IMG/VR virus record: IMGVR_UViG_3300031965_000001
Span: 7,267 to 71,266 of that record
Reading direction: 5' to 3' (one strand)
DNA length: 64,000 bases
Source: a virus
Part shown: positions 8,625-62,330 of the stretch, one piece after another
Numbering within the stretch: position 1 is the first letter of the stretch
Layout: the number at the start of each line of letters is the position of its first letter
The notes under the pieces: generated by a model
Told to the model about the DNA's origin: nothing
Databases searched by the model: none
Seen by the model: the letters and a program-made list of their open reading frames with translations, nothing else
Position numbers and translations under genes: made by a program

Positions 8625-8710
8625 AGATTATGTATTGCTAAGAAATTATTGCATTTCGTGGAAAAATGTGCTACACTTCCCATATATTATCACCTATTTC
8701 TCAATTAAAT

Positions 8711-9265
8711 ATGAGCTGTATAGTCGCAATCCGAAATGATAAAGGTGTAATAATGGGGGCAGATTCCTGTGTATCAAGTTACTATCATCGTGCGACCCCT
8801 CAAAAGGAACCAAAGATCAAAATGGTCGGGGAATATATATTCGGCACCGCTGGTGGCGCAAGGGAGGGGCAGATCATCAAAAATGCCATAGCAACAAAAA
8901 AATATAATGAGAAAGATGATTTCTTTTATCATTGCATTAACATCCTCATACCAGAAATAAAAACTGCTCTGGGACAGGCTGGGTGCCTTAAAAAGGAAAG
9001 AGAAATTGAGGAATTCAACGGAGAGATACTTATAGGGCATGGGACTAGGTTGATGAGGGTAGGAGGCTCTTTCGCTGTTATAGAGCACATTGATGACTTT
9101 TTAGCTATAGGATGTGGCGAGGAATGGGCAATAGGGGCAATGTACGCATTGAAGAAAAACATGAAAAAAATGTCGGACAAAGAGGTGCTAGAAAATGCCC
9201 TACTCGCTGCGACCCAATATTCTGGATTTGTGAAGGGACCATATCATTTCCTACAAAACTATTAG
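8711..9265 (+). CDS. HslV/proteasome-beta-like Ntn hydrolase
   Basis: MSCIVAI...GADS, KI, GTAG, AIGCG pattern; start placed at ATG 8711. Confidence 0.75.
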   Translation: MSCIVAIRNDKGVIMGADSCVSSYYHRATPQKEPKIKMVGEYIFGTAGGAREGQIIKNAIATKKYNEKDDFFYHCINILIPEIKTALGQAGCLKKEREIEEFNGEILIGHGTRLMRVGGSFAVIEHIDDFLAIGCGEEWAIGAMYALKKNMKKMSDKEVLENALLAATQYSGFVKGPYHFLQNY

Positions 9266-9266
9266 T

Positions 9267-9638
9267 ATGGAAAAGAATTTTGTAGACATGGTTATAAAGA
9301 AAATCGTAGAATCCAGAGATGGGTGTAAGCATGAATGTGAATACGGAGAAGGGCATGTGTTTGATACCTATTGTGCTAAATGTGGCATGTCGGTAAGAGA
9401 TTACAAATTTGAAGACTGGATAGACCTCGAAGATGTTCTAAGGGCAACGTGGACAGACGATTCTGTAAAAAAATATTTAGAAGTTAGGACTATTGACATT
9501 CCTAGAGATGATATTATGGGGTCCAGAGATAGCATGATCGCCAGTATCGTCTATTCATGGGAACTGGGTAAAACACTGCGCGAACAAAGCGAAGAAACAT
9601 TGAAATTTTTAGACTCAATTCTCCCACCATCTTTATGA
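9267..9638 (+). CDS. Hypothetical protein
   Basis: 123-aa ORF with a CxH...CxxC cluster. Confidence 0.55.
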   Translation: MEKNFVDMVIKKIVESRDGCKHECEYGEGHVFDTYCAKCGMSVRDYKFEDWIDLEDVLRATWTDDSVKKYLEVRTIDIPRDDIMGSRDSMIASIVYSWELGKTLREQSEETLKFLDSILPPSL

Positions 9639-9832
9639 TAAAATTTATATCATACATTCTCATCGCACCATTCATATTTTTCTGTATCCTCTTTTTTATA
9701 TTAACAGTAATAGTAAGCGCAATGATGGCATTTGATGGAATAAAAAATGGAGATATAGAACTGATATTTATTGGTGCAGGAATATTTTCCTTATTTCTTT
9801 TTGTATTAGGAATTTGGATAATGCCAAAATAA
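9635..9832 (+). CDS. Small two-TM membrane protein
   Basis: Two hydrophobic helices; ATGA overlap with the upstream stop. Confidence 0.55.
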   Translation: MIKFISYILIAPFIFFCILFFILTVIVSAMMAFDGIKNGDIELIFIGAGIFSLFLFVLGIWIMPK

Positions 9833-9837
9833 AAGAT

Positions 9838-10278
9838 ATGAAAATAATAATGTTAGACATTGACGGCGTATGTAACCAAATGGGTCCCTCCTACTCAACA
9901 CCCATAAAAATGGTTGGCGATATTTTAACTCAGGTTGAGCCAGAGATTATCTATAGGTTTAATCTTTTGGTGGATAGGACTGACGCAGAAATAGTCCTTT
10001 CTAGCTCTTGGAGATACCACCCAAACTGGAGAGAAATAATGAAGGCGAGTGGGATTGTAAAATCATTTTTAGACAGAACCCCATTTGATCGTTCTTACTC
10101 ATCTAGGGGTCATTCAATACAGGCGTGGCTGGATGATCATACAGAAGTAGAAAAATATGCGATAATTGACGATGATCGGGACATGCTTCCAGCACAACTG
10201 CCAAACTTCTTTCATTGTAATGAAGAAGAAGGATTAACAGAGGAAATTGCAAAGACCATAGAACTTCACCTTTCTTAA
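9838..10278 (+). CDS. HAD-fold phosphatase (Swiss-army-knife RNA-repair-like HAD family)
   Basis: MLDIDGV, IVLSSSWR, RGHSIQAWL, YAIIDDD. Confidence 0.8.
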   Translation: MKIIMLDIDGVCNQMGPSYSTPIKMVGDILTQVEPEIIYRFNLLVDRTDAEIVLSSSWRYHPNWREIMKASGIVKSFLDRTPFDRSYSSRGHSIQAWLDDHTEVEKYAIIDDDRDMLPAQLPNFFHCNEEEGLTEEIAKTIELHLS

Positions 10279-11997
10279 ATGGAACTCAGGCCCTACCAGC
10301 GTGATTGTGTCGATGCTATATGGAAGGCTGTGGATGAAGGTGAGAAATTAATGATAGTTGTCATGGCTACAGGGCTTGGGAAATCCGTCATACTAGCAGA
10401 TATACCTAAAGTTATCAAGGGTAGAGGGGGCAAAACTTTAATAGTAGCGCACAGAGAGGAGCTGCTTAACCAAATAAAAGAGAAAATAGAACTCATATCT
10501 CCTGAATTAAAAATAGGAGTGGAACAGGCAGAAAAAACAGCTCCACCATATTCAGATGTGATCCTCGCTAGTGTCGCCACCATAGGCAGAAAAGATTCAA
10601 AAAGATTAAAGAAATTTAACCCAAATGAAATTCAATGTATACTACTTGACGAAAGCCACAGATCGGTTTCTGATGGTTTCAGCAATGTTCTCTCGTACTT
10701 CGGATGTAATAAAAAGGAAGGGATTAAGCCTGATTGTCCTTTTGTGGTCGGCTTCACTGCCACACCGTTTCGTGGGGATTCGGTTGGGCTGGAAAAGGTA
10801 TTCAATAAGGTGGTTTATACATACGACATAAACACAGGAATTGAAAATGGATACCTTAGTGATATACGGGCCTATAGTATTTTTACAAATCATAAACTCA
10901 ATGTAGGGGTTAGGGCTGGGGATTTTGCAATCAACGAGCTATCAGAATCAGTGAACAACCCGATAAGAAACAAGCTAGTTGTTGATTCCTATAAAGAAAT
11001 ATGTGGAGGGGAAAAGGCTATATGCTTCACCGTAGATGTTCAACACACTTTTGATTTATGTAATCAATTTCGGTCATCTGGATTTTTGGCACACCCAGCA
11101 CACGGCGGTATGCCAAAAGACGAAAGACATGATGTTGTTGATAGGTTTAGGAACGGAGATATACAGGTTCTCTTGAATTGTTCTATGTACTGCGAAGGAT
11201 TCGATGCGCCTGAAACAAGGGCTATACTCATGGCTCGACCGACAAAGAGCAAGACCCTATGGCAACAGTGCATAGGGAGGGGCACAAGAATCACTCCCAC
11301 CAAGAATGAGATGAAACTGTTGGACTTCGTCGATAGCTGCAAGCGCCACAGGCTAGTAACCTCCAGCTCCCTCATCGGTCTCGATGAACCCCTCCGAGCA
11401 AAAGGTCAAAGAATAATGAAGATGAAAGATAAAATCGACGAACTAAGAAACCGCCACCCCAACAAAGACCTCTCAAAAATTGATCTTGAGAATATCGACA
11501 AAGAAATTGAAGAGATAAATATCTTTGAGATGGCTACGCTCCCCCCTATTATCATGGAGAATAGCAAATATAAATGGGTTCAATATCTTGATGGATATAA
11601 GATTTTTCTCGGAGATAATGAAAATGGAGAAAAGAGATATTGTGAAATAAGACCAAATATCGTTGGCACATACGAAATCCATATTTATACAATGGTTAAA
11701 AATCCCAAAGAGAGAATAGAAATGGATGGTCTTTACAGAAAAAATGACAGTAAGCTGGTTGGTTCTGCGCCGACCGATATAGATGCTATAAAAATGGCAG
11801 ACTCATTTATAGAGCAAAATATGGCATCTTCCAAAAACCTCATTAGCCAAGATGCTAGGTGGAATAATGATGTAGCTACACCTAAACAGGTGAGATTTCT
11901 TACGAGAAACGGTCATAACAAACAAGACGCAGAAATGCTCACAAAGGGGCAGGCGTCGAATTTGATATCAAATATAATCAATTCCTTCAAGGGCTAG
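10279..11997 (+). CDS. SF2 DEAD/DEAH-box helicase
   Basis: LRPYQ, ATGLGKS, DESH, GFTATP, EGFDAP, QCIGRGTR. Confidence 0.92.
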   Translation: MELRPYQRDCVDAIWKAVDEGEKLMIVVMATGLGKSVILADIPKVIKGRGGKTLIVAHREELLNQIKEKIELISPELKIGVEQAEKTAPPYSDVILASVATIGRKDSKRLKKFNPNEIQCILLDESHRSVSDGFSNVLSYFGCNKKEGIKPDCPFVVGFTATPFRGDSVGLEKVFNKVVYTYDINTGIENGYLSDIRAYSIFTNHKLNVGVRAGDFAINELSESVNNPIRNKLVVDSYKEICGGEKAICFTVDVQHTFDLCNQFRSSGFLAHPAHGGMPKDERHDVVDRFRNGDIQVLLNCSMYCEGFDAPETRAILMARPTKSKTLWQQCIGRGTRITPTKNEMKLLDFVDSCKRHRLVTSSSLIGLDEPLRAKGQRIMKMKDKIDELRNRHPNKDLSKIDLENIDKEIEEINIFEMATLPPIIMENSKYKWVQYLDGYKIFLGDNENGEKRYCEIRPNIVGTYEIHIYTMVKNPKERIEMDGLYRKNDSKLVGSAPTDIDAIKMADSFIEQNMASSKNLISQDARWNNDVATPKQVRFLTRNGHNKQDAEMLTKGQASNLISNIINSFKG

Positions 11998-12066
11998 AAA
12001 AAAGTCTTGCTTTTGTTATTGACACAGTTTACAATGCTGGTGTTAATTTTTATTGATTCTATTTCC

Positions 12067-12372
12067 ATGGTAAAAGAAAGAAAGATCGGAACGAAAGGAC
12101 ACAAAACACTGATGAGTGAATGGCGTGTCGCCAAGAATCTCAGCCTAAACGATATAGCCAAAAAAATGGGCATAACAAGGGAATGTGTACGTTTATGGGA
12201 AAGGGGACGGACGAGGGCGAGCTTAGAAAATATCATATTTATTGCTGGAATTTTGGGAGTAAAGCCGCACGATATCGAGAGACATTTTGCTGAGGAGGCG
12301 ATGAAAAGGCGGGGGATAATGTCGTATGGAGATGAAGGGGAGGAGGAGAAAAAAGAGCTGAAGGTCTTCTAG
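12067..12372 (+). CDS. XRE-family HTH regulator
   Basis: WRVAKNLSLNDIAKKMGITRECVRLWERG. Confidence 0.8.
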   Translation: MVKERKIGTKGHKTLMSEWRVAKNLSLNDIAKKMGITRECVRLWERGRTRASLENIIFIAGILGVKPHDIERHFAEEAMKRRGIMSYGDEGEEEKKELKVF

Positions 12373-12376
12373 GGTC

Positions 12377-12405
12377 TTGACAGAATCATGGAGAACTGCT
12401 AGGGT
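12377..12405 (+). promoter_or_regulatory. Sigma70-type promoter
   Basis: TTGACA-17-TAGGGT-6 nt-ATG 12412. Confidence 0.65.
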
Positions 12406-12411
12406 TTTGTC

Positions 12412-12597: not shown

Positions 12598-12702
12598 TCG
12601 TATCATTTTGATACGATTTGACAGAATAGCCCTAAAGGTGGATAGGGGGTCTTTGTTCTAAAATTGGTTGAATGGTGGAAAGATTTATATTATGGTGGGG
12701 GT

Positions 12703-14003: not shown

Positions 14004-14043
14004 AGTGAAATGGGGAAAGAAACTAGACGATAGTATCAGTCTG

Positions 14044-15764: not shown

Positions 15765-15929
15765 ATGCCAGACCATTCCACTGACCAGAACAGCTTCTTT
15801 AGGCTCCTCAACCTTGCCGCTACGACACGCGTGAAAGGAGAAGATCGAAAAGATGGTTTCCACTCTTCCGATGATTGTAACGCCACTGAAATTCAGAAAC
15901 ATAAGCGTGGAGCATCTTCGGAGAAATAA
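15765..15929 (+). CDS. Putative 54-aa leaderless ORF convergent on and overlapping the transposase 3' end
   Basis: TGC-TATAAT at 15749-15757, 7 nt to ATG; MPDHSTDQNSFFRLLNLAATTR... Confidence 0.4.
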   Translation: MPDHSTDQNSFFRLLNLAATTRVKGEDRKDGFHSSDDCNATEIQKHKRGASSEK

Positions 15930-16677
15930 CGTGATGCGTACCGTCTAGGCTGCGTTTTAGTTGGCTCCAAAAGCCTTCAATGGTGTTTGTATGCGTTCCA
16001 TTCTCTTTGGCGTACTGCTTAGCTCCATGCTGTACCGTGTCATGCTCCATTTCCAGTAGTGTTGCGATTTTCTTGTAGGTCTTGAGTTCATCGGTCATAA
16101 CTTTCGTACCCTTGGCGATATTGTTTTGGAAGTGTGGAAGCAAGGTTGACGCTCTTACGTTCTCTACAACGGAAGCGTTCATTTTGCCCTTTCTCTGTAC
16201 GGCTCCAAACACAATCGTTTTTCCTTCTGCTCCACGCCCACGTTTACCTTTTCGCTTACCACCTACAGCCGTTTCATCGGCTTCTACTTCCCCGAAAAGC
16301 ATTGTGGCATTCTCCTTCATTAGCTTCCGTACTTGATGCCCGATTCTATAGGCGCATTTGTAGGTAACGTCCAAAGCCCTCTCCAGTTCCTTCGCTGATA
16401 CACCATTGCGAGATTGAGAGAAAAGAAAGATGGCAAAAAACCACTTCACAAGGTCTGTAGAAGAATGGTCAAAGATCGTTCCCTCCTTCGGGAAGATGTG
16501 AGAGCAGCCGTTCTTACAGGTGTAGCAAGCCCGTGTAGGGTGCTTGTAGAACTTTGTCTCCCCGCATTTCGCACACTTTGGTTCGGGGAAGCGTGCGTTG
16601 AAGAGATATGCCAGACAGGTGTTGTTATCGGGGAATCTCTTGTGGAAGTTGAGAACAGAGAGGCGTTGTGCTTTCAT
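15820..16677 (-). CDS. IS1595-family DDE transposase
   Basis: Zn ribbon CAKC...CKNGC, VEADET, MTDE, TNTIEGFWSQLKR, EFQWRYN. Confidence 0.95.
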   Translation of the reverse strand: MKAQRLSVLNFHKRFPDNNTCLAYLFNARFPEPKCAKCGETKFYKHPTRACYTCKNGCSHIFPKEGTIFDHSSTDLVKWFFAIFLFSQSRNGVSAKELERALDVTYKCAYRIGHQVRKLMKENATMLFGEVEADETAVGGKRKGKRGRGAEGKTIVFGAVQRKGKMNASVVENVRASTLLPHFQNNIAKGTKVMTDELKTYKKIATLLEMEHDTVQHGAKQYAKENGTHTNTIEGFWSQLKRSLDGTHHVISPKMLHAYVSEFQWRYNHRKSGNHLFDLLLSRVS

Positions 16678-16740
16678 AGGTGAGTAGGAATGTACCTATA
16701 GTCTAGCTTTTACCTTCCTAGTCGTCAAGGGATAATCACC

Positions 16741-21657: not shown

Positions 21658-21708
21658 AGAATAAAATTGGGAAAAACAAACAAAATACTAGCACTTTTTA
21701 CAGGTGAA

Positions 21709-22137
21709 TCAATGCTTTTCACTTGCCTCATCCAAAAAGGATACAACAACACTTCTACTTCTTACCCCATCCATTTCTACAAGGAAAAGAGTCTCCCACT
21801 GCCCAAGTAGCATCTTTCCGTTAAGGACAGGGATCATTTCCGACGTATTAAATAATAAACTGCGAAGGTGAGAGTATCCATTAATTCTTTCGTCTGGCGG
21901 AACGTCCCTAATTCCCACGTAATCATGACGGAAGTGTCCTTTTTCTGGGAATGTATCTTCCAAGAATTTTAGGTAATCTGAATGAAGAAGAATTTCATTT
22001 TCAAGAATGCGAATGCTGGCAGTTGTATGCTGCGAAAACACATGGACAACACCATTGAACCCATCAGGTATTTTGTCCTGTACATCTCGCGTTATATTGG
22101 TGAACACCTTCTCTGTTGTAAAATTAAGTATAATCAT
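21709..22137 (-). CDS. yjbQ: YjbQ/UPF0047 family protein
   Basis: FTNIT, HVFSQHTTASIRILENE, NGYSHLRSLL, MLLGQWETLFLVEMDG.R.R. Confidence 0.85.
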   Translation of the reverse strand: MIILNFTTEKVFTNITRDVQDKIPDGFNGVVHVFSQHTTASIRILENEILLHSDYLKFLEDTFPEKGHFRHDYVGIRDVPPDERINGYSHLRSLLFNTSEMIPVLNGKMLLGQWETLFLVEMDGVRSRSVVVSFLDEASEKH

Positions 22138-22745
22138 CTTTCAATGAGGTAAGTTCTATCCACAGCTATCCCTATATGCGTTCCCCTCGGGTATTCACCC
22201 TTTACCATTTTCAAAACATGGTCAGCAATTCTCTCTGGGTCTAATAGCGTGTTTGGGTCTTCATCTGGAAACAAATCCTTCCTCATTTTTGTCGCTATCC
22301 TATGCGGAGAAATACAATAGGCATTTACCCCCTCCTCCACCAAAGATTCCGTCAAGGAGATCAGCCCAGCTTTACTCGCAGAATATCCACTCCATCCACC
22401 TCGCCCCTTTAATCCCGCTGCCGAGGCTATGTTAATAATAGTATGAGCACCATTCAAAAGGGCATATTTTGTACAATAGTATGCGCCGAGGAGATTCACA
22501 GAAATTTCTCTCTCCCAAAATTTTACAGAGTCGTTAGATGGATCATCAACACGGGCTGGATGTATGTATCCAGCGCAATTTACAAGAATTTTTGGTCTAT
22601 TCTCCTCCATAAATTCTTTTACCTCTTCTGATATTGTTATATCTAGGTCGTTGCTTCCTGGTGACATGCAATTTGGAAACCGAGAAGCTACAGCCTGAGC
22701 AGTTCCGCCAGTACCGCCAGTGACTAGAACTAAATCGTTTTGCAC
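22134..22745 (-). CDS. SDR oxidoreductase, putative ribitol-5-phosphate dehydrogenase
   Basis: TGGTGG, VNCAG, NIAS, YSASK; coupled to the IspD-like gene. Confidence 0.75.
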   Translation of the reverse strand: MQNDLVLVTGGTGGTAQAVASRFPNCMSPGSNDLDITISEEVKEFMEENRPKILVNCAGYIHPARVDDPSNDSVKFWEREISVNLLGAYYCTKYALLNGAHTIINIASAAGLKGRGGWSGYSASKAGLISLTESLVEEGVNAYCISPHRIATKMRKDLFPDEDPNTLLDPERIADHVLKMVKGEYPRGTHIGIAVDRTYLIER

Positions 22746-23314
22746 AGTGATTCGAGAATAGGCAAGTCTTCTTTATATGTCAATTTATATAGATTCCTAC
22801 CGCCCTCCAGAATTTTTGGTTTTACATCCCAGTATTCCTTAAATATCACAGTGTCATCTGTGGCATTTTCCATATTCGTGTGCTTGTGAGCCATCCTAAG
22901 ACTATTGAGATCAAACGCCTGTGGCACCTGTAGTGCAATCAGACCAGACCTTTTATAATCTCCATCATCATAAATAGTATCGACTGGCTCAATGCCGAAT
23001 GTCACTGATGGGTGTTCTAACACAGCCCCCTTTATACATTCTATTTGAAAAGGAGTTACGAGCGGTCTCACAGCATCAAAAATAACAACATAATCTCCAC
23101 TCACATTATTGATACCAATTTTACAAGATTCCTGCCTCGTCTTCCCCCCTGGTACATCCATTCCGACAATAACGATGTCGTCAAAATGATCTTCACAAGT
23201 ATCAGAAACCCACTTCCAAACTGGCTTACCGCTTAGGAATATATCTTGTTTTTTTTTGTCACCAGAGAACCTCTCTCCATTCCCGCCAGATAATATGATG
23301 GCGCTAAACCGCAT
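22730..23314 (-). CDS. IspD/TarI-family cytidylyltransferase
   Basis: ILSGGNGERF...K, GGKTRQES, FDAVRP, LQVPQAF, TDD, KLTYKEDL. Confidence 0.88.
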   Translation of the reverse strand: MRFSAIILSGGNGERFSGDKKKQDIFLSGKPVWKWVSDTCEDHFDDIVIVGMDVPGGKTRQESCKIGINNVSGDYVVIFDAVRPLVTPFQIECIKGAVLEHPSVTFGIEPVDTIYDDGDYKRSGLIALQVPQAFDLNSLRMAHKHTNMENATDDTVIFKEYWDVKPKILEGGRNLYKLTYKEDLPILESLCKTI

Positions 23315-24281
23315 TTTCTATGAAATGAACACAGTTATTTATAGCGTTACCGCAGTTAAAAAGCAACTGATCTTTCCAAAAATCTCTCCTATCCTTGAAA
23401 TAAGATTCCTTATTTTTTACTGCAATATCTATCTCTTTTTTAAGTTCAGATATATCATCTATATTCCTCCCAATGGTCATATCCTCCTGTTTTTTTGCGG
23501 TTAAATACGACCCCCTTTTTCTTGATTCCACATTAATCGTACTCCCATTAGGTGCAAGTATTTGTATAACTGGAAGGTCTGGTATTGCCAAAGCCTCAAA
23601 ACCAGAACTTGAAAAATCTGTTAAAACAACATCTGATATCGAAAGAAGATCATTGACATTCGGAGTTTCTATGTACCAAGGATAATTTTTATCGTATCCC
23701 CACCCCCTGAATTTTCGGTATGTGAGTTCGTGTGGTGCGATAATAAGATTAGGGATATTTAGAGAAACAATATCAGGAGTCCTAACCCATGCTGCTGAGT
23801 GGCTTGGAACCCAAGAAATTATTGGATACCCCTCTATGAAGGGACTCTTCATTTTTTTCTCAATTTCTTTTAGGATTTCTGATCTGTGATCCCTCATGGA
23901 AATCAACTCATCAGACTTCGGGTATCCAGTTACGACACATTTTTCTTTAACATCTTCAGCCCTGTTTACCCACCACTTCCCCGATACCAGAATCCAATCA
24001 AATTTACTATAAGAGTGGTTATTAAGAGGAAAAACAGACCTTAAAGGATTTATCCCATGCTCAATACAAATTTTCTTTCCACAATCACCCTTAAATTCAT
24101 TCACCAAAATAGAATAAGAAGTGATTGTACAGTCAGACCTTTCAAGGTGTATACCGTTTTTCAGGTCTTTCCTAGCCAAGTTTTTCAATATGATTTTGTG
24201 TCCTCTTTTTTCAAGTTCATCAAGGACTGACTTTGCAGAATATAGGTGCTGGTCGTGGCAATAAACATATTGGACGCGCAT
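23304..24281 (-). CDS. CDP-glycerol/ribitol phosphotransferase-like (TagB/TagF family), paralog 2
   Basis: IEHGIN, TGYPKSD, WVPSH, PHE, LLSISDVVLTDFSS; start placed at ATG 24281. Confidence 0.75.
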   Translation of the reverse strand: MRVQYVYCHDQHLYSAKSVLDELEKRGHKIILKNLARKDLKNGIHLERSDCTITSYSILVNEFKGDCGKKICIEHGINPLRSVFPLNNHSYSKFDWILVSGKWWVNRAEDVKEKCVVTGYPKSDELISMRDHRSEILKEIEKKMKSPFIEGYPIISWVPSHSAAWVRTPDIVSLNIPNLIIAPHELTYRKFRGWGYDKNYPWYIETPNVNDLLSISDVVLTDFSSSGFEALAIPDLPVIQILAPNGSTINVESRKRGSYLTAKKQEDMTIGRNIDDISELKKEIDIAVKNKESYFKDRRDFWKDQLLFNCGNAINNCVHFIENAV

Positions 24282-24282
24282 C

Positions 24283-25350
24283 CTAAAGAACAGAATTTTC
24301 CAAAAAATCGCAAACATCTTTTGTAGCATTCCCAGCATTATGGAAAATCTCATCCCTCCAAAATTCCCTCTCTTTCCGATGGTAGTCCGATTGCTCTATA
24401 AGTGCATCAGAAACCTCATTCTTTAAAATAGATAAATCACTCACATTCGCCCCCAATCTGAATTCCCTATCATCATTTTGTGAAAGAGGATAGTGACCGT
24501 TTTTTAGAACGTCAAACTCACTTCTGTTGTGGAATTTCATATCTTTCAATATCTGAATAATCGGTATGTTCAACAGTGTTGCCTCTACCCCCGCACTTGA
24601 ATAATCAGTAATGACTAGATCAGATGCCAAGAGAACGTCATATATTGTATCTGTCTCGATATAATATGGGTAATCCTCTTTGTAATTCATTTTCATTCTT
24701 CCGTCTCTAAATGCCGCATAACTTCCCTCATGTGGCGCAACTACAACATTATATTCATTGCCAATCCTATCTAAAATTTCGTCGGTCATATCGCATGCGC
24801 CTCCGTGGGTGGGAACCCACGAGATTATGGGACCAGACTTAAAATCCTGCTTAACAAAATCACGAAGCCTCTGCCTATATTTTCTCCTCACTTCCTGAGT
24901 GCCCTTCCCAACAAGAAAATCAGCCTTTGGCCATCCTGTCATCTTGCATTTTGGCAAAAGATCATAATTAAACAATGACCTCCTTACAGCATCCATTTGC
25001 CATTTTCCAGTAACAAAAACATGGTCGAATAATCTATGCCTATCTAGTGGAAATCCCCAAGCGATAGGGTTCACACCATGTTCAATACATACCGTTTTTT
25101 TACATCCATGATCGAACCGTATTCTGCCATTCTTCTTATCTCTCAATGTTTGCATTATCCTCGGATAAGAACAAATGAAAATATCACCGTTTGAAATATC
25201 TACATCTTCAAATCCTGGTTTCCTTTTCCGTATATCATCGTGGATTAGGCTGACTTCTGCTATATCATGCCCACGTTTGTCCATCTCTTCTAAAACAGGG
25301 TTCACTGCTGACCAATGTTGCCGACCACAATAAGCATGGATAATTTTCAC
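24283..25350 (-). CDS. CDP-glycerol/ribitol phosphotransferase-like (TagB/TagF family), paralog 1
   Basis: IEHGVN, TGWPKAD, WVPTH, PHE, LLASDLVITDYSS. Confidence 0.78.
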   Translation of the reverse strand: MKIIHAYCGRQHWSAVNPVLEEMDKRGHDIAEVSLIHDDIRKRKPGFEDVDISNGDIFICSYPRIMQTLRDKKNGRIRFDHGCKKTVCIEHGVNPIAWGFPLDRHRLFDHVFVTGKWQMDAVRRSLFNYDLLPKCKMTGWPKADFLVGKGTQEVRRKYRQRLRDFVKQDFKSGPIISWVPTHGGACDMTDEILDRIGNEYNVVVAPHEGSYAAFRDGRMKMNYKEDYPYYIETDTIYDVLLASDLVITDYSSAGVEATLLNIPIIQILKDMKFHNRSEFDVLKNGHYPLSQNDDREFRLGANVSDLSILKNEVSDALIEQSDYHRKEREFWRDEIFHNAGNATKDVCDFLENSVL

Positions 25351-35575: not shown

Positions 35576-35688
35576 CTTAAATTAATGGGAAAATCATCGG
35601 CTGTATTTTACAATAGAAATATAGTATTGACAATTGCCAAATACCCCCTTGACACAAAATGTCTTGGGGGTAGGCTGTCATTAACGAG

Positions 35689-37210: not shown

Positions 37211-37278
37211 GTAAAATAATTGGAATTAATATATATGGTTAAATTTTACATGTTAAAAACAAAAAGTAAAGCACAAAA

Positions 37279-37975: not shown

Positions 37976-38005
37976 AGTAACGAATGGAAAAACGATTAAA
38001 AATCC

Positions 38006-39339: not shown

Positions 39340-39767
39340 ACTGAGATGTTGGGATTTCTAAAGGTGCAAGATGCCTCTATATGATGTATGCCCCTGTCTG
39401 CTGGGATTTTCACAACATTATTAACAATCATTGGGTTCGCCCCCCCATCATCCTCGAAAACAATCTCCCCATTATTCGTTTGAATTTTCATTATCTGATC
39501 CGATTGCCGTATATTTGCGCTGGGCAAAAGCATTAAAAAGAAATCGTAATCGACAATATACTCTTTGTTTTTCACCCTCTTTGTCTCTTTTTGAAATACA
39601 CCAGATTCAACATGGCATTTCTCTATGGTATCTTCTGTGACCTGATCATATTGCCCAAAACCGTCCTGAGTCCCAGAATCAGTAATATGTCTCACCGTCA
39701 CAGTATGGCGCAACTCGTTCGCTGGGATAACATGAAGACCTTCCATGAGGGTAGTATAGCTTGACAC
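39336..39767 (-). CDS. Head closure/stopper protein
   Basis: HTVTVR...QDGFGQ, HHIEA; position. Confidence 0.7.
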   Translation of the reverse strand: MSSYTTLMEGLHVIPANELRHTVTVRHITDSGTQDGFGQYDQVTEDTIEKCHVESGVFQKETKRVKNKEYIVDYDFFLMLLPSANIRQSDQIMKIQTNNGEIVFEDDGGANPMIVNNVVKIPADRGIHHIEASCTFRNPNISV

Positions 39768-41331: not shown

Positions 41332-42051
41332 TTAATCCTCAGTTACAGCTCCACCCTCATAAGCGCACTCTCCGAACATATTTCTTTTCCCCCTGAAATA
41401 TTTTAATTCGACATCGAGTGATCTGTATGGGGTTTCTTTCCTCAGCCTTATGCCTGGAATGTTCGTATATGGTGATGTGAAGGAGCTGAGTTTCGTTCCT
41501 TTTAGAAGAAAAAAACAAATATCAGTTATCTTTGCGCCGTGTTTTCTGGCTGCCTCCTTGTGGTACTCTGCGATTCCTGCGTCTGCGGCTGCAACCAACC
41601 TTGCATTCTTAATATCATTAGTTCTCCTCTCCTGCTCTCTAAGAATTCTTCCCTCTAGCGTCTCGCCAAATTGATCATCACCAGAAGCGAAGTCTGATGA
41701 TATAATCTTATTAATCGAGGCTGATTCTCCATCGTGGGGTTGGACCTCTTTCGATTCGATATCGAGCTTCCTTTTTACTGGTTTATTCTTTTCTGCACTT
41801 CTGTCGGGAAGTCTAGGCTGTGATTCACCAGAATCATCATCATCTTCTTCTTCATCTAACACACTATCGGCAGCTGCTTTTGCCCTAGAATCTAGTGAGT
41901 CACCATCGTCTCCAAGTGCATCTTGCACTTCCATAGCCTTTTCTCTAATCATAGGCAGAGACGCTTTCGGGTCCATTGTATTCCCTGTTTCTTGCAGATA
42001 TGACAAAAGAGTGTCTTTGTCTGCTGTAGATAAATCTTTTTCTTTAGACAT
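41332..42051 (-). CDS. Hypothetical protein after the capsid gene (N-terminal HeH-like motif, acidic linker)
   Basis: 239-aa ORF. Confidence 0.55.
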   Translation of the reverse strand: MSKEKDLSTADKDTLLSYLQETGNTMDPKASLPMIREKAMEVQDALGDDGDSLDSRAKAAADSVLDEEEDDDDSGESQPRLPDRSAEKNKPVKRKLDIESKEVQPHDGESASINKIISSDFASGDDQFGETLEGRILREQERRTNDIKNARLVAAADAGIAEYHKEAARKHGAKITDICFFLLKGTKLSSFTSPYTNIPGIRLRKETPYRSLDVELKYFRGKRNMFGECAYEGGAVTED

Positions 42052-42135
42052 ATAGTTAATTGGGAAAAATTAATTGAAAAGTGTCTATATTTTACACAGA
42101 ATATTTAAAATAACAATTGACATGTAACAAAGAAA

Positions 42136-46552: not shown

Positions 46553-46933
46553 TTAATTGGGGGAATTTGGAGATAAAAGTGATTCTAATTCCTCTTCTAA
46601 TCCTTGCGCCTCTGGATGTTCCTCCTTTAATTGTTCTACAATAAATTTTCTTACATTCTCCTCCCTGAATCCCAGTTTCTTAAACAGAAACATCAACATG
46701 TGGATAATTACTTCTGATGATTCTGACTGATTCCTCTCCGACTTCCTGAATGCCATGACCGTTTTTGCCTTTTTTCCTGAAAACATACCACGAAGAAAAA
46801 CTATTGCGGATAGATCAGTGAAGCCATCTTCCATAAATACACCATCTACCTTATTGAGAACGTCATTCATAGACGAATCTAGTTCTTGCTCTGTCCGATT
46901 TTCTGTCTCATTATTTGACTCGTCTGAGGACAT
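46553..46933 (-). CDS. Hypothetical protein
   Basis: Start placed at ATG 46933. Confidence 0.5.
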   Translation of the reverse strand: MSSDESNNETENRTEQELDSSMNDVLNKVDGVFMEDGFTDLSAIVFLRGMFSGKKAKTVMAFRKSERNQSESSEVIIHMLMFLFKKLGFREENVRKFIVEQLKEEHPEAQGLEEELESLLSPNSPN

Positions 46934-47374: not shown

Positions 47375-47866
47375 TTAATTGAGGGAATTTCGTTCCTGCT
47401 CGTCAATGATAGCGTAGACAACTGTGTTGGGCAACTCTCTTACGATTTTTGTAACAAAATCATCTGCATTCAGTGAAATGGTCAATGTTTTTGATGTATC
47501 AGAATTTCGTAGGTTGATGCGAACAGATTTATCTTGCTCCAAAAATGAGAATTTCACAGAATCAAACTCCTGCTTCTCTTGTGACTCGATCATTTCCTTT
47601 CTTATCTCCTTTGTCTTTTCTGTAATAGATTCAAAATCTTCCATTAGTCCGACAATCTGAATATCCCTAGTGGCTATATCACAACTGAAGCCATCTAATG
47701 TTTTAACTTTTATACTGTATGGCGGTAAATCTCCATTAATGCAAACTGATCCGTCTGGATAGAAACAGTTCAAATTTGATTCTAACGCCATGAACCTGAA
47801 AGCCCCCAAATCGGTTCTTATATAGTATTCCTTGCCTTCTTCAAAATTGAAAACACTAAAATACAT
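47375..47866 (-). CDS. Hypothetical protein
   Basis: Start placed at ATG 47866. Confidence 0.5.
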   Translation of the reverse strand: MYFSVFNFEEGKEYYIRTDLGAFRFMALESNLNCFYPDGSVCINGDLPPYSIKVKTLDGFSCDIATRDIQIVGLMEDFESITEKTKEIRKEMIESQEKQEFDSVKFSFLEQDKSVRINLRNSDTSKTLTISLNADDFVTKIVRELPNTVVYAIIDEQERNSLN

Positions 47867-51445: not shown

Positions 51446-51460
51446 AATTTAATTGGGAAT

Positions 51461-53436: not shown

Positions 53437-53560
53437 ATAGTTTGGGGAACTCTACGTTTCACAGGGCGAGTAACTCTCACACAGTCCCGTAGGGCTGTGC
53501 TACCATCTCCTCCCTCCGCGTCTTGGTTGGCACCCAACCAGTGCTTCAGAACCATTTTGG
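53400..53560 (-). ncRNA. Predicted TnpB omega RNA (scaffold plus flank-derived guide); boundaries approximate
   Basis: Hairpins TGGTTGG/CCAACCA, CACAGCCC/GGGACTGTG and TTCCC/GGGAA over the tnpB 3' end; position expected for omega RNAs. Confidence 0.6.
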
Positions 53561-56114: not shown

Positions 56115-56132
56115 ATAAAAATTGGGGAAAAA

Positions 56133-56448: not shown

Positions 56449-58398
56449 TCAATTATCAGTGTTGTCTTCTTCCTCTCCCGATCCTATCTCCTCACCACCT
56501 TCATCTTGCTGCCCATCTTCTGCGACACCCGCATCATCAGAAGTGGGCGCAGATACGATAATATCCTCTTCTCCAAGACCATTAATTGGGTGAACAGAAT
56601 TCGGGAGATAGATAAGGTGGACATCAGCATACGGTACATTCGATACCCTGGGCATATTCAACATCTCCCTACCCTCATTTATGGTTATCTCACCAACCCT
56701 AACCATATCTTTGACTATTTCACTATCCTCTTTCATATCAGTAAGATCTGGCGGATAGAACACAAACCGACCACTGAAACCAAAGTCTTGCCTAATCATC
56801 TTGGTAAATTTATATGCGATTAGCATCTGAAGAGGTCTGACCTGATCATGATAGAATGTCTCTCTTTGGTCCCTAGAATTGGAATTATGTACAAGAATAC
56901 CATTGGCGATGAAATTGTGTGAATCTTCAACCTCAATATCGTATGTCATTTCTTTCCTTCCTGTTTTCTCAATAGAATCTACAGTCTGGGTTCTTAGCTT
57001 CCTGAAAAACTTTTTATCAGTATTGTCAAAAACAATAATAGAATCACCCTCCATAAGCTGATCAGCATTGCACCAAACGAAGTCCTCATCATACATTTCA
57101 TCAACGAGTGCAAACGGATGGTTGGCCGTACAATTAATCTCTTTCCCGCCACATGTGATTTTATAAATTTCCTTTTCTCCATTTTCAAAAATATTTATTA
57201 CCTTTCTCTCTTCCAGTTTTCCATCATCGAATGAGTATACCATATCTCCAACTTCTATTTCAGAAATAGGTTTGCGCCCTTCTACCATTGAAACGACTGT
57301 CTCCGCAGTCAGACACCTATTCGCATTTTCGACTAGATTGAGAAGAATCGGCGGGACTCCATACGCCATAAAAACCATCTCCCTTAGATATTTCATAAGA
57401 TTCAAATACGCCCCTTCTGGCTGGTGTTGATTGAGGAATTTCACCTCAAAATCTGCGTTGTCCTCCCCCTGCAAGTTAATAATAGGAACCTTATTCCACC
57501 TCTTCTCTTCATGGATAACCTCTTCAATATATTCTTCAAGCTCCATGAGCTGCTCGTCACTAATTGACCCTCTCTTAACAACGAAAAGGAACTTCTGTAA
57601 CCAACCATGTTCAAATTGGTCTATATTAAATTCCTCTGTATATTTTGCCATCAGAAGAACCCTCGATAAAGATATTGCCGGAGATTGCCCATAATATTTA
57701 CTATCTGGATTAGAGAGCTTGAACCACATTATCTCTGTCATTTTTTTCTGACGAGATCCCTTTGGCGGCTTCCGTGCGAACCCTTCTGATTCAACGCGCA
57801 TATCTCTCTCAGGTGTATATTTGTTGTACCAAACAATTTCATCTTTCATGTTTAATGTTTCATCAATCTCAACGAATCTCTGCCCAGTCCTGAATGCACC
57901 ATATTTTTTGTCATCAGACCTTCCTCTGGCAACACGCATTTTTCCTATCGGTGCTCTATAAAATCCAGATGGTTTACCGTCAACACTCCCTGCGAATCTT
58001 GTTATCTCCATGGCGGCAGAACCCGTATTAAGGAGATCCGTAACCAAATCTTCCATCTCTACAGCAAATGGAGAATCTGGGTTCCCATTTTCAAAAAATT
58101 CAGTGACATCACTCGGCACTGCCTGCGCAGTATTATCAGGAACAACCCCATACCCGTTTTTTGTGACTGACCCAGCTGTGACATCTATACATCTCTGCAA
58201 TGTTGCGTTTTCAGAATATAGATTGATTAAAGAGTCAAATGGGAATGTAGGATGTAAAACGCCTATATCTTTCAAGATTCCCTCTTCTTTTTCATCATCT
58301 ACCTGTTGGCTTTGAACATGGCTTTTCCCCAATAAAACAACAGATGACTCCTTTTTTGAAGTATCTCCTGCCAATGTCTTCTTAGTCTTCTTTGCCAC
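56449..58398 (-). CDS. Portal protein with intein
   Basis: CIDVTAGSV, LLNTGSAAME, YYGQSP, AYGVPPILL, ITINEGREML. Confidence 0.92.
   Translation of the reverse strand: MAKKTKKTLAGDTSKKESSVVLLGKSHVQSQQVDDEKEEGILKDIGVLHPTFPFDSLINLYSENATLQRCIDVTAGSVTKNGYGVVPDNTAQAVPSDVTEFFENGNPDSPFAVEMEDLVTDLLNTGSAAMEITRFAGSVDGKPSGFYRAPIGKMRVARGRSDDKKYGAFRTGQRFVEIDETLNMKDEIVWYNKYTPERDMRVESEGFARKPPKGSRQKKMTEIMWFKLSNPDSKYYGQSPAISLSRVLLMAKYTEEFNIDQFEHGWLQKFLFVVKRGSISDEQLMELEEYIEEVIHEEKRWNKVPIINLQGEDNADFEVKFLNQHQPEGAYLNLMKYLREMVFMAYGVPPILLNLVENANRCLTAETVVSMVEGRKPISEIEVGDMVYSFDDGKLEERKVINIFENGEKEIYKITCGGKEINCTANHPFALVDEMYDEDFVWCNADQLMEGDSIIVFDNTDKKFFRKLRTQTVDSIEKTGRKEMTYDIEVEDSHNFIANGILVHNSNSRDQRETFYHDQVRPLQMLIAYKFTKMIRQDFGFSGRFVFYPPDLTDMKEDSEIVKDMVRVGEITINEGREMLNMPRVSNVPYADVHLIYLPNSVHPINGLGEEDIIVSAPTSDDAGVAEDGQQDEGGEEIGSGEEEDNTDN
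56884..57315 (-). other. Mini-intein, 144 aa, no homing endonuclease
   Basis: ANR|CLTAET...TANHPF...YDIEV...HNFIANGILVHN|S. Confidence 0.93.
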
Positions 58399-58456
58399 TT
58401 ACACCACATCATACTTATTATTTACACAAACGCAAGGGTTTCCGCATGTCTAATGC

Positions 58457-58927
58457 CTAAAAATCTGGGTACAATGCCAAACAGCCCTGAATATCAGACT
58501 TATACCTCGATTCAACCACATTGTCGTAAAACATGAATTTACCAACAATTTTCGATTGCATACAGGTAACGAACCCCTCGTATTCATCGTGCCCTTCGAC
58601 TGATCCTGAAGAAGTATAATATACCAATGGATCATCGGAAACCGTGATATTAGCCCAATACTGATCAAGGCACCTTTTTGCATCTAATCGAAGATTGAGA
58701 ACTGGCACATCCACCGAAAGCTCGTCCTCTATACAATCATAATATTCTTCGTGGATATTCCTTGTTTTCTCATCGTTTTCAATATACTTGGTTACTTCTT
58801 GTTTGCTATTGATGGCCAGATGGTTAGCAGGCACGATAGCCGCTTCCCTATAATCCAAGACCAACCATATAGCCAACATAAAAACTGCAATAGTGGCACC
58901 GACGATTTTTAGAAAATTTTGAGACAT
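58457..58927 (-). CDS. Membrane-anchored/exported hypothetical protein
   Basis: TM helix after MSQNF; start uncertain. Confidence 0.55.
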   Translation of the reverse strand: MSQNFLKIVGATIAVFMLAIWLVLDYREAAIVPANHLAINSKQEVTKYIENDEKTRNIHEEYYDCIEDELSVDVPVLNLRLDAKRCLDQYWANITVSDDPLVYYTSSGSVEGHDEYEGFVTCMQSKIVGKFMFYDNVVESRYKSDIQGCLALYPDF

Positions 58928-58985
58928 TCGATATTGGGAAGGAGAACACCATAAGAGGGAAAAATTCCCCCTCATGCTAACCTCT

Positions 58986-59159
58986 TTAGCGGCAAAGATG
59001 ATGCTGCCCCCTACGAACCTCTGCTCCCCATCGTGCCTCATGCGTTTCAGACACTGCATGGTTTGCAATGAACGTAGTATATAGCTGCCCATCATGGCGA
59101 ACTCCATCGCAGAAGTTGGCACCAACTGACAGATACAAGGCGATAAGTGCAAAACCCAT
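58986..59159 (-). CDS. Small hypothetical protein
   Basis: ATG 59159 preceded by TTTTTCTCCAATTTTAT. Confidence 0.4.
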   Translation of the reverse strand: MGFALIALYLSVGANFCDGVRHDGQLYTTFIANHAVSETHEARWGAEVRRGQHHLCR

Positions 59160-59367
59160 ATAAAATTGGAGAAAAATATAAGAGTTTTCAGTGTAGCAGA
59201 AACAAACTTGGAAGTCAAGACCTGTTTCCCCTTTTCTTCTTTTTCCTGTATTCCGCCGGAGCAAATGGGTCAGCACCAAATTTATATCCAGAATCCTCAA
59301 GTTCCTTTGCATATTCGTGACAATACATCCCTGGCACTTTGCTGTTCTTTCTTTTCTTCGCCATATA

Positions 59368-59751
59368 CTAATCGTAGCCTATATTGCCCTCTTGTGGAAG
59401 GGAAATCGCCTCTCGCAACAATTCTCTCACATCTCTTCCCTCTTTATGGAATCTGGGTCTCGAAAGTTGTATCGCAAACCCCCTTAGGTGTGGGTGATAA
59501 GAAAGAGAAAAATGCGTATTGTGCTTTTGCCTAAGAGCCTCCAACAATGTTACCCCGTCATTCAGGCTAACCTGATTTGGTTTCCTCATAGACACGCTCT
59601 GCACACTCGCTAATATTTTTCCCCTCGCAGCATTTTTTGATGTAGCCCTGCACGCCTTGCAAACCCCCTCTTTTCCGTCTGGCCTCCTCTTATCTGCCCT
59701 GAACATCTCTATTGGTTTTTGTGTTCCGCATTTGTTGCAAGATTTTTCCAT
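59368..59751 (-). CDS. Zn-finger protein (HNH-associated finger, no nuclease domain)
   Basis: CNKCGTQKPIEMF...DG...CKAC. Confidence 0.6.
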   Translation of the reverse strand: MEKSCNKCGTQKPIEMFRADKRRPDGKEGVCKACRATSKNAARGKILASVQSVSMRKPNQVSLNDGVTLLEALRQKHNTHFSLSYHPHLRGFAIQLSRPRFHKEGRDVRELLREAISLPQEGNIGYD

Positions 59752-59815
59752 TTTTGAGAATTGTGAAGTTAATTGGTGACTGATTTTAGCTGAGGGAACG
59801 GTCGGTGTCAACCCC

Positions 59816-61810
59816 CTAGAACGGCAAATCGTCTGGTTTTTCCTCTTTCTTTTTTTGTTTCTTCGGTGCTTTCAGAAGGGAGATTTCCTTCTCTCTCGTT
59901 AGCTCCTGCTTCGTCCCTATCTTTTGATCGACATATTCATATTCAAAAGTATATGGGTTAAATTTCATCACTATCGTCTTTTCCCCGACTGGAGAACGTA
60001 TCTTTGGCATCATAAAGTGTGTTTCATTGATGTCTGTCCCGAGATCATCGCTTCTATCTCTCCACATATTTATGACGACGTTCGCCGTTTGCACTATTGA
60101 ACTCGAATCTTTGAATGAGTCTAGCGTAGGCTTCTCACCTCGCAATTTATGATAATGAGCAACCAATAATATGGCTACCTCTAGCTTATCAGCAAGTCCC
60201 TTTATTCTCTGCATAACCTCTTCTATTGCATCTGCCTTTGTTCTGTTCTGCACACCAATATTGAAGAAGTGAAGGTGATCTATCCCAAATAATTTGTATC
60301 CCCTTTCCGCAGATTTTATTATTAGATCTTCCAATGTATCGACATCCATTTTTTTGGGTGCATCTTCGTGCCCTCTGTCATAAAATATAAGATTCCCACT
60401 ATCCTTGGTCATCCGCTCTGCCTCTTCCCTTTCTTCTGCGTAAGAAGAACTAACTATATTATTGTTTCTAAATTCCTTCCATGGATAATTTTTGTGACCA
60501 GCCCTCTTTCTAATTTTCCCGATTGAAAACCACAACTGCTTTAGTGTGTAGTCCAAGAGAGTATCCTCTAGGGAGAAAAGAACTACTTTATGCCGTAGAG
60601 AATTATGCCTTAAAATGCTTGTAATAAAAGAACTTTTCCCGAGTCCTGACTCTCCGCCCACTAAAACAACCTCGCTGGGATATATTCCTCCCAAGTGATC
60701 ATCTAGCGGTGCGTACCCATAAGAGAATATACTATTCGGATCAAGTTCGTCAATGTATTTTGCTGATTTGTCCACCATTGTATCCAGCGTCACAAATGGG
60801 AATGAGTTCTTTTTCTTCTCTTCATATTCTCTTTTCGACGCTTCTCTGACTTGCTGATAATTTTTTCTGAACCATGCAAAGGTGTCTTTTGAATCAAGTT
60901 TTAACCATGTTTTCACAAATGAGAACGGCGAATACCCCTCCGAATCTGGCGGGAGATGGTCTGTCCCTCCATGAACGAGAAAATTCCCCTTATCCGCGAC
61001 AAAACATGCCTTGGGCTTCGTATCTCCTCCACTGTAAAAATGATTTTTCTCTAGTCTCCAGCCAGTAAGACTGGCAACGATCCCCCCGATTGGGATTGAG
61101 TTTATCACAGATAGCGTGTTGTCTGGATCTGACGGCTCTATTGAATTTTCAGGCTCCTCATCGGAAAAAATGGCTAGTGCTTTCCCCACATCCTGAATTT
61201 CATGTATTTTGAATGTTCTATCTTGATAGTAGAGAATTTCTACTAGTGTGTGTTGACCGTTTTTATTGTTGTACGTTCCTGGGAATCTCGAAAGTCTTGC
61301 TGCATTTTTGCACGCTGGGTCTATCTCTATTCCAACAGTTCTCACCGCCTCTTCTATAAAATGCTCCACCCCTAACCTCCACCATAATTTATCTTCTACC
61401 TCAACTGTATCTCCTATAAAATGTATATGGATGCCATTAGCTGTAAAAACAAGATATCTCCAATTTCGTAATTCTGTGTGGGAATCTAGTTTGTCAACAA
61501 TATACCCAGCCGCACTGTTTTTTATCTCCTCTTTGGATATCTCTTTACCATACTGTTTTTTGTGCCATTCCCTGATATCAAAATCTAAGAAAAAGCTATT
61601 CTTGTGAGTTATGTGATCATCCTTTGCTCTCCCCTTGGTTCCTATTTTTACACCCCCCAAAAAATATAAATCCTCATTCTCATGTTTTTTAATTATTTCT
61701 GTTGGGAATTTATCTTTTTCTAAAACTGAATATACTGTGTAGAGATTTCCAAATTGCAAATCGCAGCCGTCAATAATAAGATCGTTCTGAAACTTTAGGA
61801 GGTTGCTCAT
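59816..61810 (-). CDS. Primase-helicase (AEP-like primase plus DnaB-like SF4 helicase)
   Basis: FFLDFD, NGIHIHF, RLSRFPGTYNNK; GGESGLGKS, GIDHLH, LVAH, KDSSSIVQTANVV. Confidence 0.88.
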   Translation of the reverse strand: MSNLLKFQNDLIIDGCDLQFGNLYTVYSVLEKDKFPTEIIKKHENEDLYFLGGVKIGTKGRAKDDHITHKNSFFLDFDIREWHKKQYGKEISKEEIKNSAAGYIVDKLDSHTELRNWRYLVFTANGIHIHFIGDTVEVEDKLWWRLGVEHFIEEAVRTVGIEIDPACKNAARLSRFPGTYNNKNGQHTLVEILYYQDRTFKIHEIQDVGKALAIFSDEEPENSIEPSDPDNTLSVINSIPIGGIVASLTGWRLEKNHFYSGGDTKPKACFVADKGNFLVHGGTDHLPPDSEGYSPFSFVKTWLKLDSKDTFAWFRKNYQQVREASKREYEEKKKNSFPFVTLDTMVDKSAKYIDELDPNSIFSYGYAPLDDHLGGIYPSEVVLVGGESGLGKSSFITSILRHNSLRHKVVLFSLEDTLLDYTLKQLWFSIGKIRKRAGHKNYPWKEFRNNNIVSSSYAEEREEAERMTKDSGNLIFYDRGHEDAPKKMDVDTLEDLIIKSAERGYKLFGIDHLHFFNIGVQNRTKADAIEEVMQRIKGLADKLEVAILLVAHYHKLRGEKPTLDSFKDSSSIVQTANVVINMWRDRSDDLGTDINETHFMMPKIRSPVGEKTIVMKFNPYTFEYEYVDQKIGTKQELTREKEISLLKAPKKQKKKEEKPDDLPF

Positions 61811-61898
61811 TGGGAATCAATTATGCTCTGCTATTGCCATATCCGCAAATGAACGTGGGTTGAAAATAAGAAAAAATGTTTTAACAAACAAAAAGAAA

Positions 61899-61916
61899 GG
61901 CCGCTTGGGAGCGGCC
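61899..61916 (-). terminator. Rho-independent terminator
   Basis: GGCCGC-6-GCGGCC plus T-run on the minus strand. Confidence 0.6.
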
Positions 61917-61937
61917 ACACGTGATAGTCTAAATTTT

Positions 61938-62249
61938 CTAAAGAATCTTTATAATCTCGTCCATGGCATTTATAAAATCTCCAACTTTGTCTACTTTAAT
62001 AATGTTTTTGTCTTTTAGGACTTTTAGAATTTCAAAAGCCTGTTTTCCTTTATCAATGGACTTTTCCTGAATATATACTGGATATGTTTCTTTTATGACA
62101 TGCGGGTAATAATAATCTCTCCAATATCCCCAGCATGTCATCCCTGATTCCTGTGGAGAAATATAATCTGTCGTAACACTTACGCCCAAATTATCTCCAA
62201 CTGGAGAATTCATCATTGACATTACCTGTGATTTATTAAGATTTTCCAT
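61938..62249 (-). CDS. Hypothetical protein
   Basis: 103-aa ORF. Confidence 0.55.
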   Translation of the reverse strand: MENLNKSQVMSMMNSPVGDNLGVSVTTDYISPQESGMTCWGYWRDYYYPHVIKETYPVYIQEKSIDKGKQAFEILKVLKDKNIIKVDKVGDFINAMDEIIKIL

Positions 62250-62330
62250 AGTTTTTGCAATTGGAAGGCGGATAAAAAACGACTATCAAGTGCAATCTGA
62301 ATATACTCTTCCGATTCTGACTGTCAACCC

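Follow-up and report, generated by a model that had tools for sequence, protein, structure and literature searches.

The stretch of DNA analysed here (the window) comprises 64,000 nucleotides, bases 7267-71266 of a single virus record (IMGVR_UViG_3300031965_000001; 105,910 bp, 41% GC), and its source is a tailed phage of 106 kb. Many start codons of this phage are preceded at a short distance by a pyrimidine box, UUCC(C), and we propose that the box is probably a translation-initiation signal independent of the Shine-Dalgarno (SD) sequence, common to the phage and to its probable host lineage, the Peribacteria order (Peribacterales) of the candidate phyla radiation (CPR). The box is locked in position relative to start codons, is strand specific, occurs before operon-internal genes, is conserved in related phages, and is found in an identical register in Peribacterales genomes. 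A preliminary description of the window had suggested an alternative initiation signal with a longer motif: the signal is indeed start-locked, distinct from an SD sequence and present before operon-internal genes, but the full-length motif did not stand up as a conserved unit.

Open reading frames (ORFs) were called over the whole record by a motif-blind rule (the start of the longest ORF), giving 159 ORFs. TTCC or TCCC beginning at positions -16 to -12 relative to the start codon was observed 37 times, against 5.0 expected from the -40 to -21 region (Poisson p=4e-20), and the antisense control (GGAA or GGGA at the same positions) gave four occurrences. Within the broader interval from -22 to -3, one of the two words precedes 28% of starts as opposed to 7.5% of 1,756 internal ATGs (odds ratio 4.7, p=9e-13). 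An unbiased scan of all 3- and 4-mers placed TCCC and TTCC at the top for positions -17 to -11, with CCAA and CAAT ranking next, at -13 to -10, one to three positions downstream of the core. The spacer between the last C of the box and the ATG ranges from 6 to 14 nt with a mode of 9-11, a location like that of SD sequences (about 5-13 nt upstream, and variable). The coding strand of the phage is G-rich overall, and so the C-rich box runs counter to the bulk composition.

The 11 sites listed in the preliminary description were all recovered from the sequence as described. Its literal 9-mer, TTCCCAATT, is not enriched over the window (40 matches with at most one mismatch, 38 expected), the enrichment being positional and confined to its core; there are three exact copies, each at -15 to -7 of a start codon. 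The AAT extension of that motif is partly real, as the ranking of CCAA and CAAT indicates. De novo motif discovery by expectation maximization yields nothing sharper than a diffuse run of T before CC. What is conserved is UUCC(C) in G-poor surroundings, rather than the full TTCCCAATT, and its strict core is carried by about one quarter of the phage genes and by 13-16% of naively called host genes.

SD sequences themselves are nearly missing. The earlier statement that AGGAGG is absent was borne out, with GGAGG found before one of the 159 starts, and the words GGAG, GAGG and AGGA are depleted (found before 9% of phage starts and 22% of internal ATGs). The box, UUCC(C), is not a purine-rich, GGAGG-like complement of CCUCC, and the G fraction in the phage leaders falls to 0.08-0.13 across -13 to -5.

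A second kind of start is found in about one-fifth of the phage ORFs, in which TAnnnT ends exactly 6 nt, or in some cases 7 nt, upstream of the start codon, often in the form TGCTAGTAT with TTGA 17 nt upstream; such ORFs should give leaderless mRNAs. The two kinds of start are distributed differently: the start-adjacent -10 box precedes 27 of 97 other genes versus 7 of 60 operon-internal genes (those at most 25 nt from the preceding gene, several overlapping its stop), whereas the UUCC(C) box precedes 22 of the 97 and 15 of the 60. Because it is equally frequent before operon-internal and other genes, the box is unlikely to be a promoter, and its presence before operon-internal genes gives it the character of a non-SD ribosome-binding site of the GeneMarkS-2 group B type. 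Extended -10 boxes also cluster a second time, 26-28 nt ahead of start codons, several box-bearing starts among them, so that the UUCC(C) box falls a few bases into leaders about 20 nt long.

Relatives of the capsid protein were found on metagenome contigs at 60-76% identity, and three syntenic contigs (L057, L058 and L059; GC 39-48%) encode capsid proteins 74-76% identical to that of the phage. Both start types occur on these three contigs, as in UUAAUUCCCCCCAUUUUUU-AUG and in UAUAAU followed by 6 nt and AUG. Among orthologue pairs between the window and the related contigs, the box is present in both members of eight and the leaderless form in both members of three, and this at a protein identity of only 42-79%.

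The host of the phage probably belongs to the CPR order that contains the Peribacteria. Identity of the phage IS1595 transposase reaches 83% with a protein of 'Candidatus Peribacteria bacterium RIFCSPHIGHO2_02_FULL_52_16' and 82% with one from a Peregrinibacteria metagenome-assembled genome (MAG), and all named matches among its best 120 are Peribacteria or Peregrinibacteria. The Peribacteria copy (L079:10001-11215) is chromosomal: it lies between VanW-domain and thioredoxin-like (DsbA-type) genes, on the same stretch as genes for DnaK, Obg and RecG, and carries CUUUCCUCCUCUUCC before its ATG. Both the phage transposase gene (15820-16677), where this had already been described, and the copy in L079 are followed by a small DUF3467-like gene, which appears to travel with the element. 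The survey of possible hosts covered 301 Patescibacteria genomes (including the unpublished G159, on which no claim rests). DnaK of the named Peribacteria contig is 77-82% identical to that of six of the 301 genomes, the next best being 68%, and the six all fall in one GTDB order; membership of the order rests on this DnaK identity together with the GTDB grouping. Four of the eight best matches to the phage HU protein among the 301 genomes fall in the same six. The guess of a CPR host in the preliminary description is thus supported by IS1595 identity, by the shared DUF3467-like neighbour and by DnaK grouping.

Other indicators of the host were less informative. Counts of TTCCC-N6-10-ATG over the 301 genomes were too noisy for choosing a host (four of the six Peribacterales genomes are among the most enriched), and no clear peak was seen in the top-count candidate genomes examined. 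A blind survey of 40 Patescibacteria ribosomal-protein clusters gave a CC peak at -15 to -11 in none of them, and most lacked SD-like words. The best named relatives of the capsid protein are Streptomyces phages, at an identity (32%) that is uninformative on the host. A cyanobacterial host was considered, as the best relatives of the phage TnpB are cyanobacterial (40-41% identity), and rejected: the ribosomal-protein operons of two cyanobacteria, and also of one Saccharibacteria MAG, have purine-rich SD-like sites.

The signal found in the phage recurs in the Peribacterales. Host statistics were taken from two genomes of phage-like GC content, G007 (43% GC, 269 genes) and G292 (44% GC, 182 genes), both placed in the order by DnaK (77-79% identity; next group, 68%). 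Genomes of the order near 60% GC were left out, the 'reliable start' filter having yielded many spurious ORFs. The preliminary description had suggested extending the motif analysis to CPR genomes; the box peak, the depletion of SD-like words and the leaderless starts are all present in these two. TTCC/TCCC peaks at -15/-14 in G007 (p=3e-7) and in G292 (p=7e-8), the same register as in the phage; in the pooled data the maxima are at -15 for TTCC, -14 for TCCC and -13/-12 for CCCC. SD-like words precede 5-6% of starts compared with 12-14% of internal ATGs, and 18-25% of starts have TAnnnT 5-7 nt upstream. The genes of the named Peribacteria contig, too, begin either after a -10 box or after leaders like CUUUCCUCCUCUUCC-AUG. 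Among 61 closely spaced, co-directional genes in the ribosomal-protein clusters of five genomes of the order, none has an SD-like word and 34 have YYCC, with a G fraction of 0.08 at -20 to -1. In bacteria studied to date the genes of a ribosomal-protein operon are transcribed together, and the occurrence of the box within them therefore favours a translational role.

The ribosomal RNA of the order has diverged at the corresponding place. The 16S tails of 27 Peribacterales genomes read GGAACACUUCCUUA (12 genomes), GGAACAUCUCCUUA (11), GGAAUAUCUCCUUA (2), GGAACGCCUCCUUA (1) and GGAACACCUCCUUA (1), where the canonical tail is GGAUCACCUCCUUA; CCUCC is kept in only two of them. The preliminary description held that the motif cannot pair with a standard CCUCC tail, and in this order 25 of the 27 tails have no CCUCC at all. 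Tail and trailer co-vary within the order, CUUCC going with GGGAA and CUCC with GGGAG, which implies a conserved hairpin at the 3' end of pre-16S rRNA (L125-L153). The loop of helix 45 is AGAA in all 27 genomes, as against GGAA in canonical 16S rRNA. An rpsA-like (S1-like) ORF of 474-526 amino acids is present in all five genomes of the order that were checked, so that G-poor C/U leaders and an rpsA-like gene, the features of S1-type leaders, are found together in the lineage.

Outside the order the tail is mostly intact: of 30 16S tails read from other sampled Patescibacteria (loci L163-L191), 22 are canonical (GGAUCACCUCC). About 28 of 40 ribosomal-protein clusters from the phylum (L017-L056) contain at most three SD-like words per roughly 18 gene starts, and SD-poor starts with an intact anti-SD sequence seem to be common in the CPR. 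In two genomes with canonical tails, G180 (L029) and G025 (L040), ribosomal-protein genes have YCC directly against the ATG (UAAUCCU-AUG and AAUUCCC-AUG), a register different from that of the phage; AUCC complements the GGAU found just after helix 45. In a Patescibacteria genome of 0.5 Mb (G031, L190) the 16S 3' end reads ...CGUAGACUAUUUCAUUUU, with no recognisable anti-SD sequence.

Three other explanations of the box have to be weighed. The box might be a -10-like element for another sigma factor or for a phage factor, giving leaderless middle or late transcripts, and it is true that its position at -15 to -7 overlaps the -10 position of the leaderless class and that many structural (late) genes have it upstream. 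We consider this highly improbable: the box has no TAnnnT, its spacer of 6-14 nt contrasts with the sharp 6-nt peak (6-7 nt overall) of the -10 class, sigma-70-type extended -10 boxes sit 26-28 nt upstream of the same starts, operon-internal starts that lie within coding sequence have the box just as often, and in the host lineage it occurs before internal genes of ribosomal-protein operons. The preliminary description had allowed that the motif might prove to be a promoter or operator element, an outcome which the variable spacing, the operon-internal frequency and the location inside leaders do not bear out. A passive landing pad, in which selection acts only against G (against folding and stray SD-like words) and the UUCC(C) peak is a by-product, would account for the low G fractions of phage leaders and Peribacterales ribosomal-protein spacers, for the many starts that have other pyrimidine words (CUCC, CCUC, UUACC) or none, and for the diffuse result of de novo motif discovery. 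It is nevertheless unlikely, since simple G-avoidance predicts no preferred register, whereas the peak spans one to three positions and keeps a single register across the phage and two genomes of the host lineage, and other G-free tetramers (TTTC, AATT, TTAA) show no comparable lock.

Pairing with rRNA, as a displaced form of the SD/anti-SD interaction, would join UUCC to the GGAA that follows helix 45, or to the conserved trailer ACCAGGGAR if mature rRNA keeps it. The segment GGAAC or GGAAU is invariant in the order (27 16S genes; canonical bacteria have GGAU), and in 12 genomes the trailer is GGGAA, to which UUCCC is exactly complementary. Yet the ratio of TTCCC to CTCCC (followed by N6-10-ATG) is 1.2-1.8 in genomes with GGGAG and 1.2-1.9 in those with GGGAA, and this equal preference for TTCCC means that the box does not co-vary with tail or trailer. 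Four other CPR genomes have GGAA(C/U)ACCUCC tails and no excess of TTCCC-N6-10-ATG, and in the established SD geometry the nucleotides next to helix 45 stand opposite mRNA positions -3 to -1, not -15 to -12. The preliminary description proposed looking for complements of the motif in host 16S rRNA: none that was convincing emerged from the 27 Peribacterales genes, in which AAUUGGGAA is absent, complements are short and at chance level, and the only conserved complement of at least 7 nt is a 7-mer far from the tail, itself at chance level. With neither co-variation nor AAUUGGGAA, the box does not behave as an rRNA-complementary enhancer; pairing is very unlikely, and the invariant GGAA next to helix 45 is a weak candidate as partner of the box.

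Returning to the box as a signal for translation initiation, several points weigh against it. The support is entirely comparative; G-poor, unfolded leaders alone could yield much of the effect; and the box is no universal requirement, given the shares of phage and host genes that carry it. Host assignment depends mainly on one mobile-element protein and on the shared start architecture, the latter being partly circular. Start calling by the longest ORF is crude and blurs the counts, an error expected to weaken a positional peak and not to create one.

On this reading the phage has two kinds of gene start side by side. In the first, the mRNA would be leaderless, with a sigma-70-type -10 box 6-7 nt before the ATG. 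In the second, serving leadered and operon-internal genes, a G-poor leader presents UUCC(C) with its Cs near -13 to -11, the usual place of the SD sequence, and the box would help the 30S subunit to place the start codon. Its reader would most likely be a ribosomal protein, either S1-like or belonging to the platform, with the open, G-free leader as an aid; Watson-Crick pairing of the box with the 16S tail is less likely.

S1 sites are not known to keep to a single register and tend to lie at a greater distance upstream, in which they differ from the register-locked phage box, and an S1-like reader is here a prediction. S1-dependent initiation, as in the cyanobacterial rbcS gene or at S1 enhancers of E. 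coli, nonetheless shares with the phage a pyrimidine-rich leader and a dispensable SD sequence; initiation on a pyrimidine-rich or U-rich leader in cyanobacterial rbcS is attributed to Mutsuda and Sugiura 2006 as cited in PMC6028130. Closest among described systems is the non-SD element of Bacteroidia (GeneMarkS-2 group B; PMC6028130), which resembles the box in its short preferred distance, in its presence before both first and operon-internal genes, and in the depletion of SD-like words, and it is from the occurrence before operon-internal genes that such a word has been argued in print not to be a promoter (PMC6028130). There are three differences: the Bacteroidia element is A-rich (Bacteroides, Flavobacterium), whereas the phage box is UUCC(C) in a G-poor context, with TCCC and TTCC as its top k-mers; Bacteroidia, according to two accounts (PMC9976891, PMC13000453), keep CCUCC and sequester it by proteins, so that the anti-SD sequence is intact but sequestered there and mutated in the Peribacterales; and about one-fifth to one quarter of the genes of phage and host lineage are of the leaderless type, unlike the Bacteroidia system. 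Genomes of group C (Actinobacteria, Deinococcus-Thermus; PMC6028130, PMC12340547) have a similar dual architecture, with a -10 box directly before many first-gene starts, but their leadered genes use SD sequences where those of the phage use the UUCC(C) box.

Other precedents concern the same lineage. Candidatus Peribacter riflensis has been reported as SD-scarce, without CCUCC and in class iv (PMC10783764), and SD-scarce organisms lacking CCUCC were described by Amin et al. 2018 (PMC6107228). The joint loss of SD and anti-SD sequences reported in these works is reproduced here in 25 of 27 tails. PMC6107228 found no significant motif upstream of ORFs that is complementary to the 16S tail, and pyrimidines are not mentioned in PMC10783764; both thus describe an absence, whereas the present analysis gives a positive, position-locked UUCC(C) box, and gives it in a phage as well. 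The loss of SD sequences in Peribacter is published, and in the literature searched no paper on a positive motif was found.

The individual sites are collected below, together with one leaderless start for contrast.

Table. UUCC(C) boxes and related start-proximal elements, with positions numbered in the window
Element	Position	Strand	Context
UUCCC	21669..21673	-	11 nt before ATG 21657, holin-like gene (PHROG match)
UUCCC	42062..42066	-	10 nt before ATG 42051; head-module gene downstream of the major capsid gene
UUCCC	51455..51459	-	9 nt before ATG 51445, HU-like DNA-binding protein; gap to upstream gene 15 nt
UUCCCCC	46559..46565	-	7 nt before ATG 46551, 147-aa ORF; same box in L057 and L058 orthologues
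UUCCC	47383..47387	-	before ATG 47372; operon-internal, gap 2 nt; box within upstream coding sequence
UUCCC	35587..35591	-	11 nt before ATG 35575, tape-measure protein (1486 aa)
UUCCCC	56124..56129	-	9 nt before ATG 56114, 176-aa ORF; gap to upstream gene 18 nt
UUCC	37222..37225	-	11 nt before ATG 37210, 162-aa tail-module ORF
UUCC	37986..37989	-	10 nt before ATG 37975, tail tube protein
UCCC	39351..39354	-	before ATG 39339; start overlaps upstream stop (ATGA), box in coding sequence
UUCC	62263..62266	-	13 nt before ATG 62249, 103-aa ORF
UUCUCC, degenerate	59168..59173	-	8 nt before ATG 59159; ORF of only 57 aa; TGCTACACT -10 box upstream
UUCUC, degenerate	8698..8702	+	8 nt before ATG 8711; TGCTACACT -10 box about 33 nt upstream of the ATG
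UUCC	16687..16690	-	before ATG 16677, IS1595 transposase
UCCC	9622..9625	+	before ATG 9635; operon-internal, 4-nt overlap with upstream gene
UUCCCC	53444..53449	-	7 nt before ATG 53436, PD-(D/E)XK nuclease; start overlaps the end of tnpB
TTGATT-N17-TGCTAGTAT (leaderless contrast)	4367..4404	-	6 nt before ATG 4366; the other start type

The holin-like gene has a TGCTAGTAT -10 box some 27 nt upstream of its ATG, so that the UUCCC falls within a leader of about 20 nt. The box of the head-module gene at 42051 is retained in its L057 and L058 orthologues, and that of the tail tube gene is kept in L058 and, as judged by eye, in L057. One minus-strand gene has the elements of both kinds of start: behind its leaderless ATG at 5961 a second, in-frame ATG follows 27 nt later, at 5934, and the stretch between the two is AUUAAUUUUUUCCCAAAAAAAAUC, a UUCCC box at the usual distance, so that the gene may have two alternative starts.

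The proteins encoded in the window include a DnaB-like helicase, TnpB, the tail tube, tape-measure, HU-like and capsid proteins, a protease/scaffold protein, an amidase, a holin, RecA, the IS1595 transposase and an intein-bearing portal protein. The portal gene (56449-58398) has its intein at residues 360-506 (Intein_splicing/Hint), a portion resembling the inteins of cyanophage and Lak phage helicase genes. The phage also encodes a bacterial-type RecA (63141-64100), a T4-type RNA ligase (2789-3886) and a cluster of CDP-glycerol glycerophosphotransferase-like genes (21709-25350). No tRNA genes and no Rfam matches were found in the window, and no near DNA match to the phage among deposited phages; the DnaB-like protein had no tblastn match in the phage collection, and a single-protein scan of IMG/VR with one head protein returned no relative.

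In place of the SD sequence, a C-rich, start-locked box is thus common to a phage and to the CPR lineage that probably hosts it. A phage genome, on which selection for expression is strong, adds another kind of genome to those with the signal, and this makes it more likely that the box is functional. A bolder idea, which we hold only tentatively, is that UUCC(C) at -15 to -11 may be a second ribosomal 'docking code', one that would have evolved in the Peribacteria after decay of the anti-SD sequence, would have as its reader some feature of the 30S platform peculiar to the lineage (either a protein or the GGAA that adjoins helix 45), and would of necessity have been adopted by the phages of these hosts. 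If this is true, the box would allow phages to be assigned by sequence to this uncultured group of hosts. In practical terms, gene starts in these genomes could be called better, and CPR phages would gain a marker for predicting their hosts.

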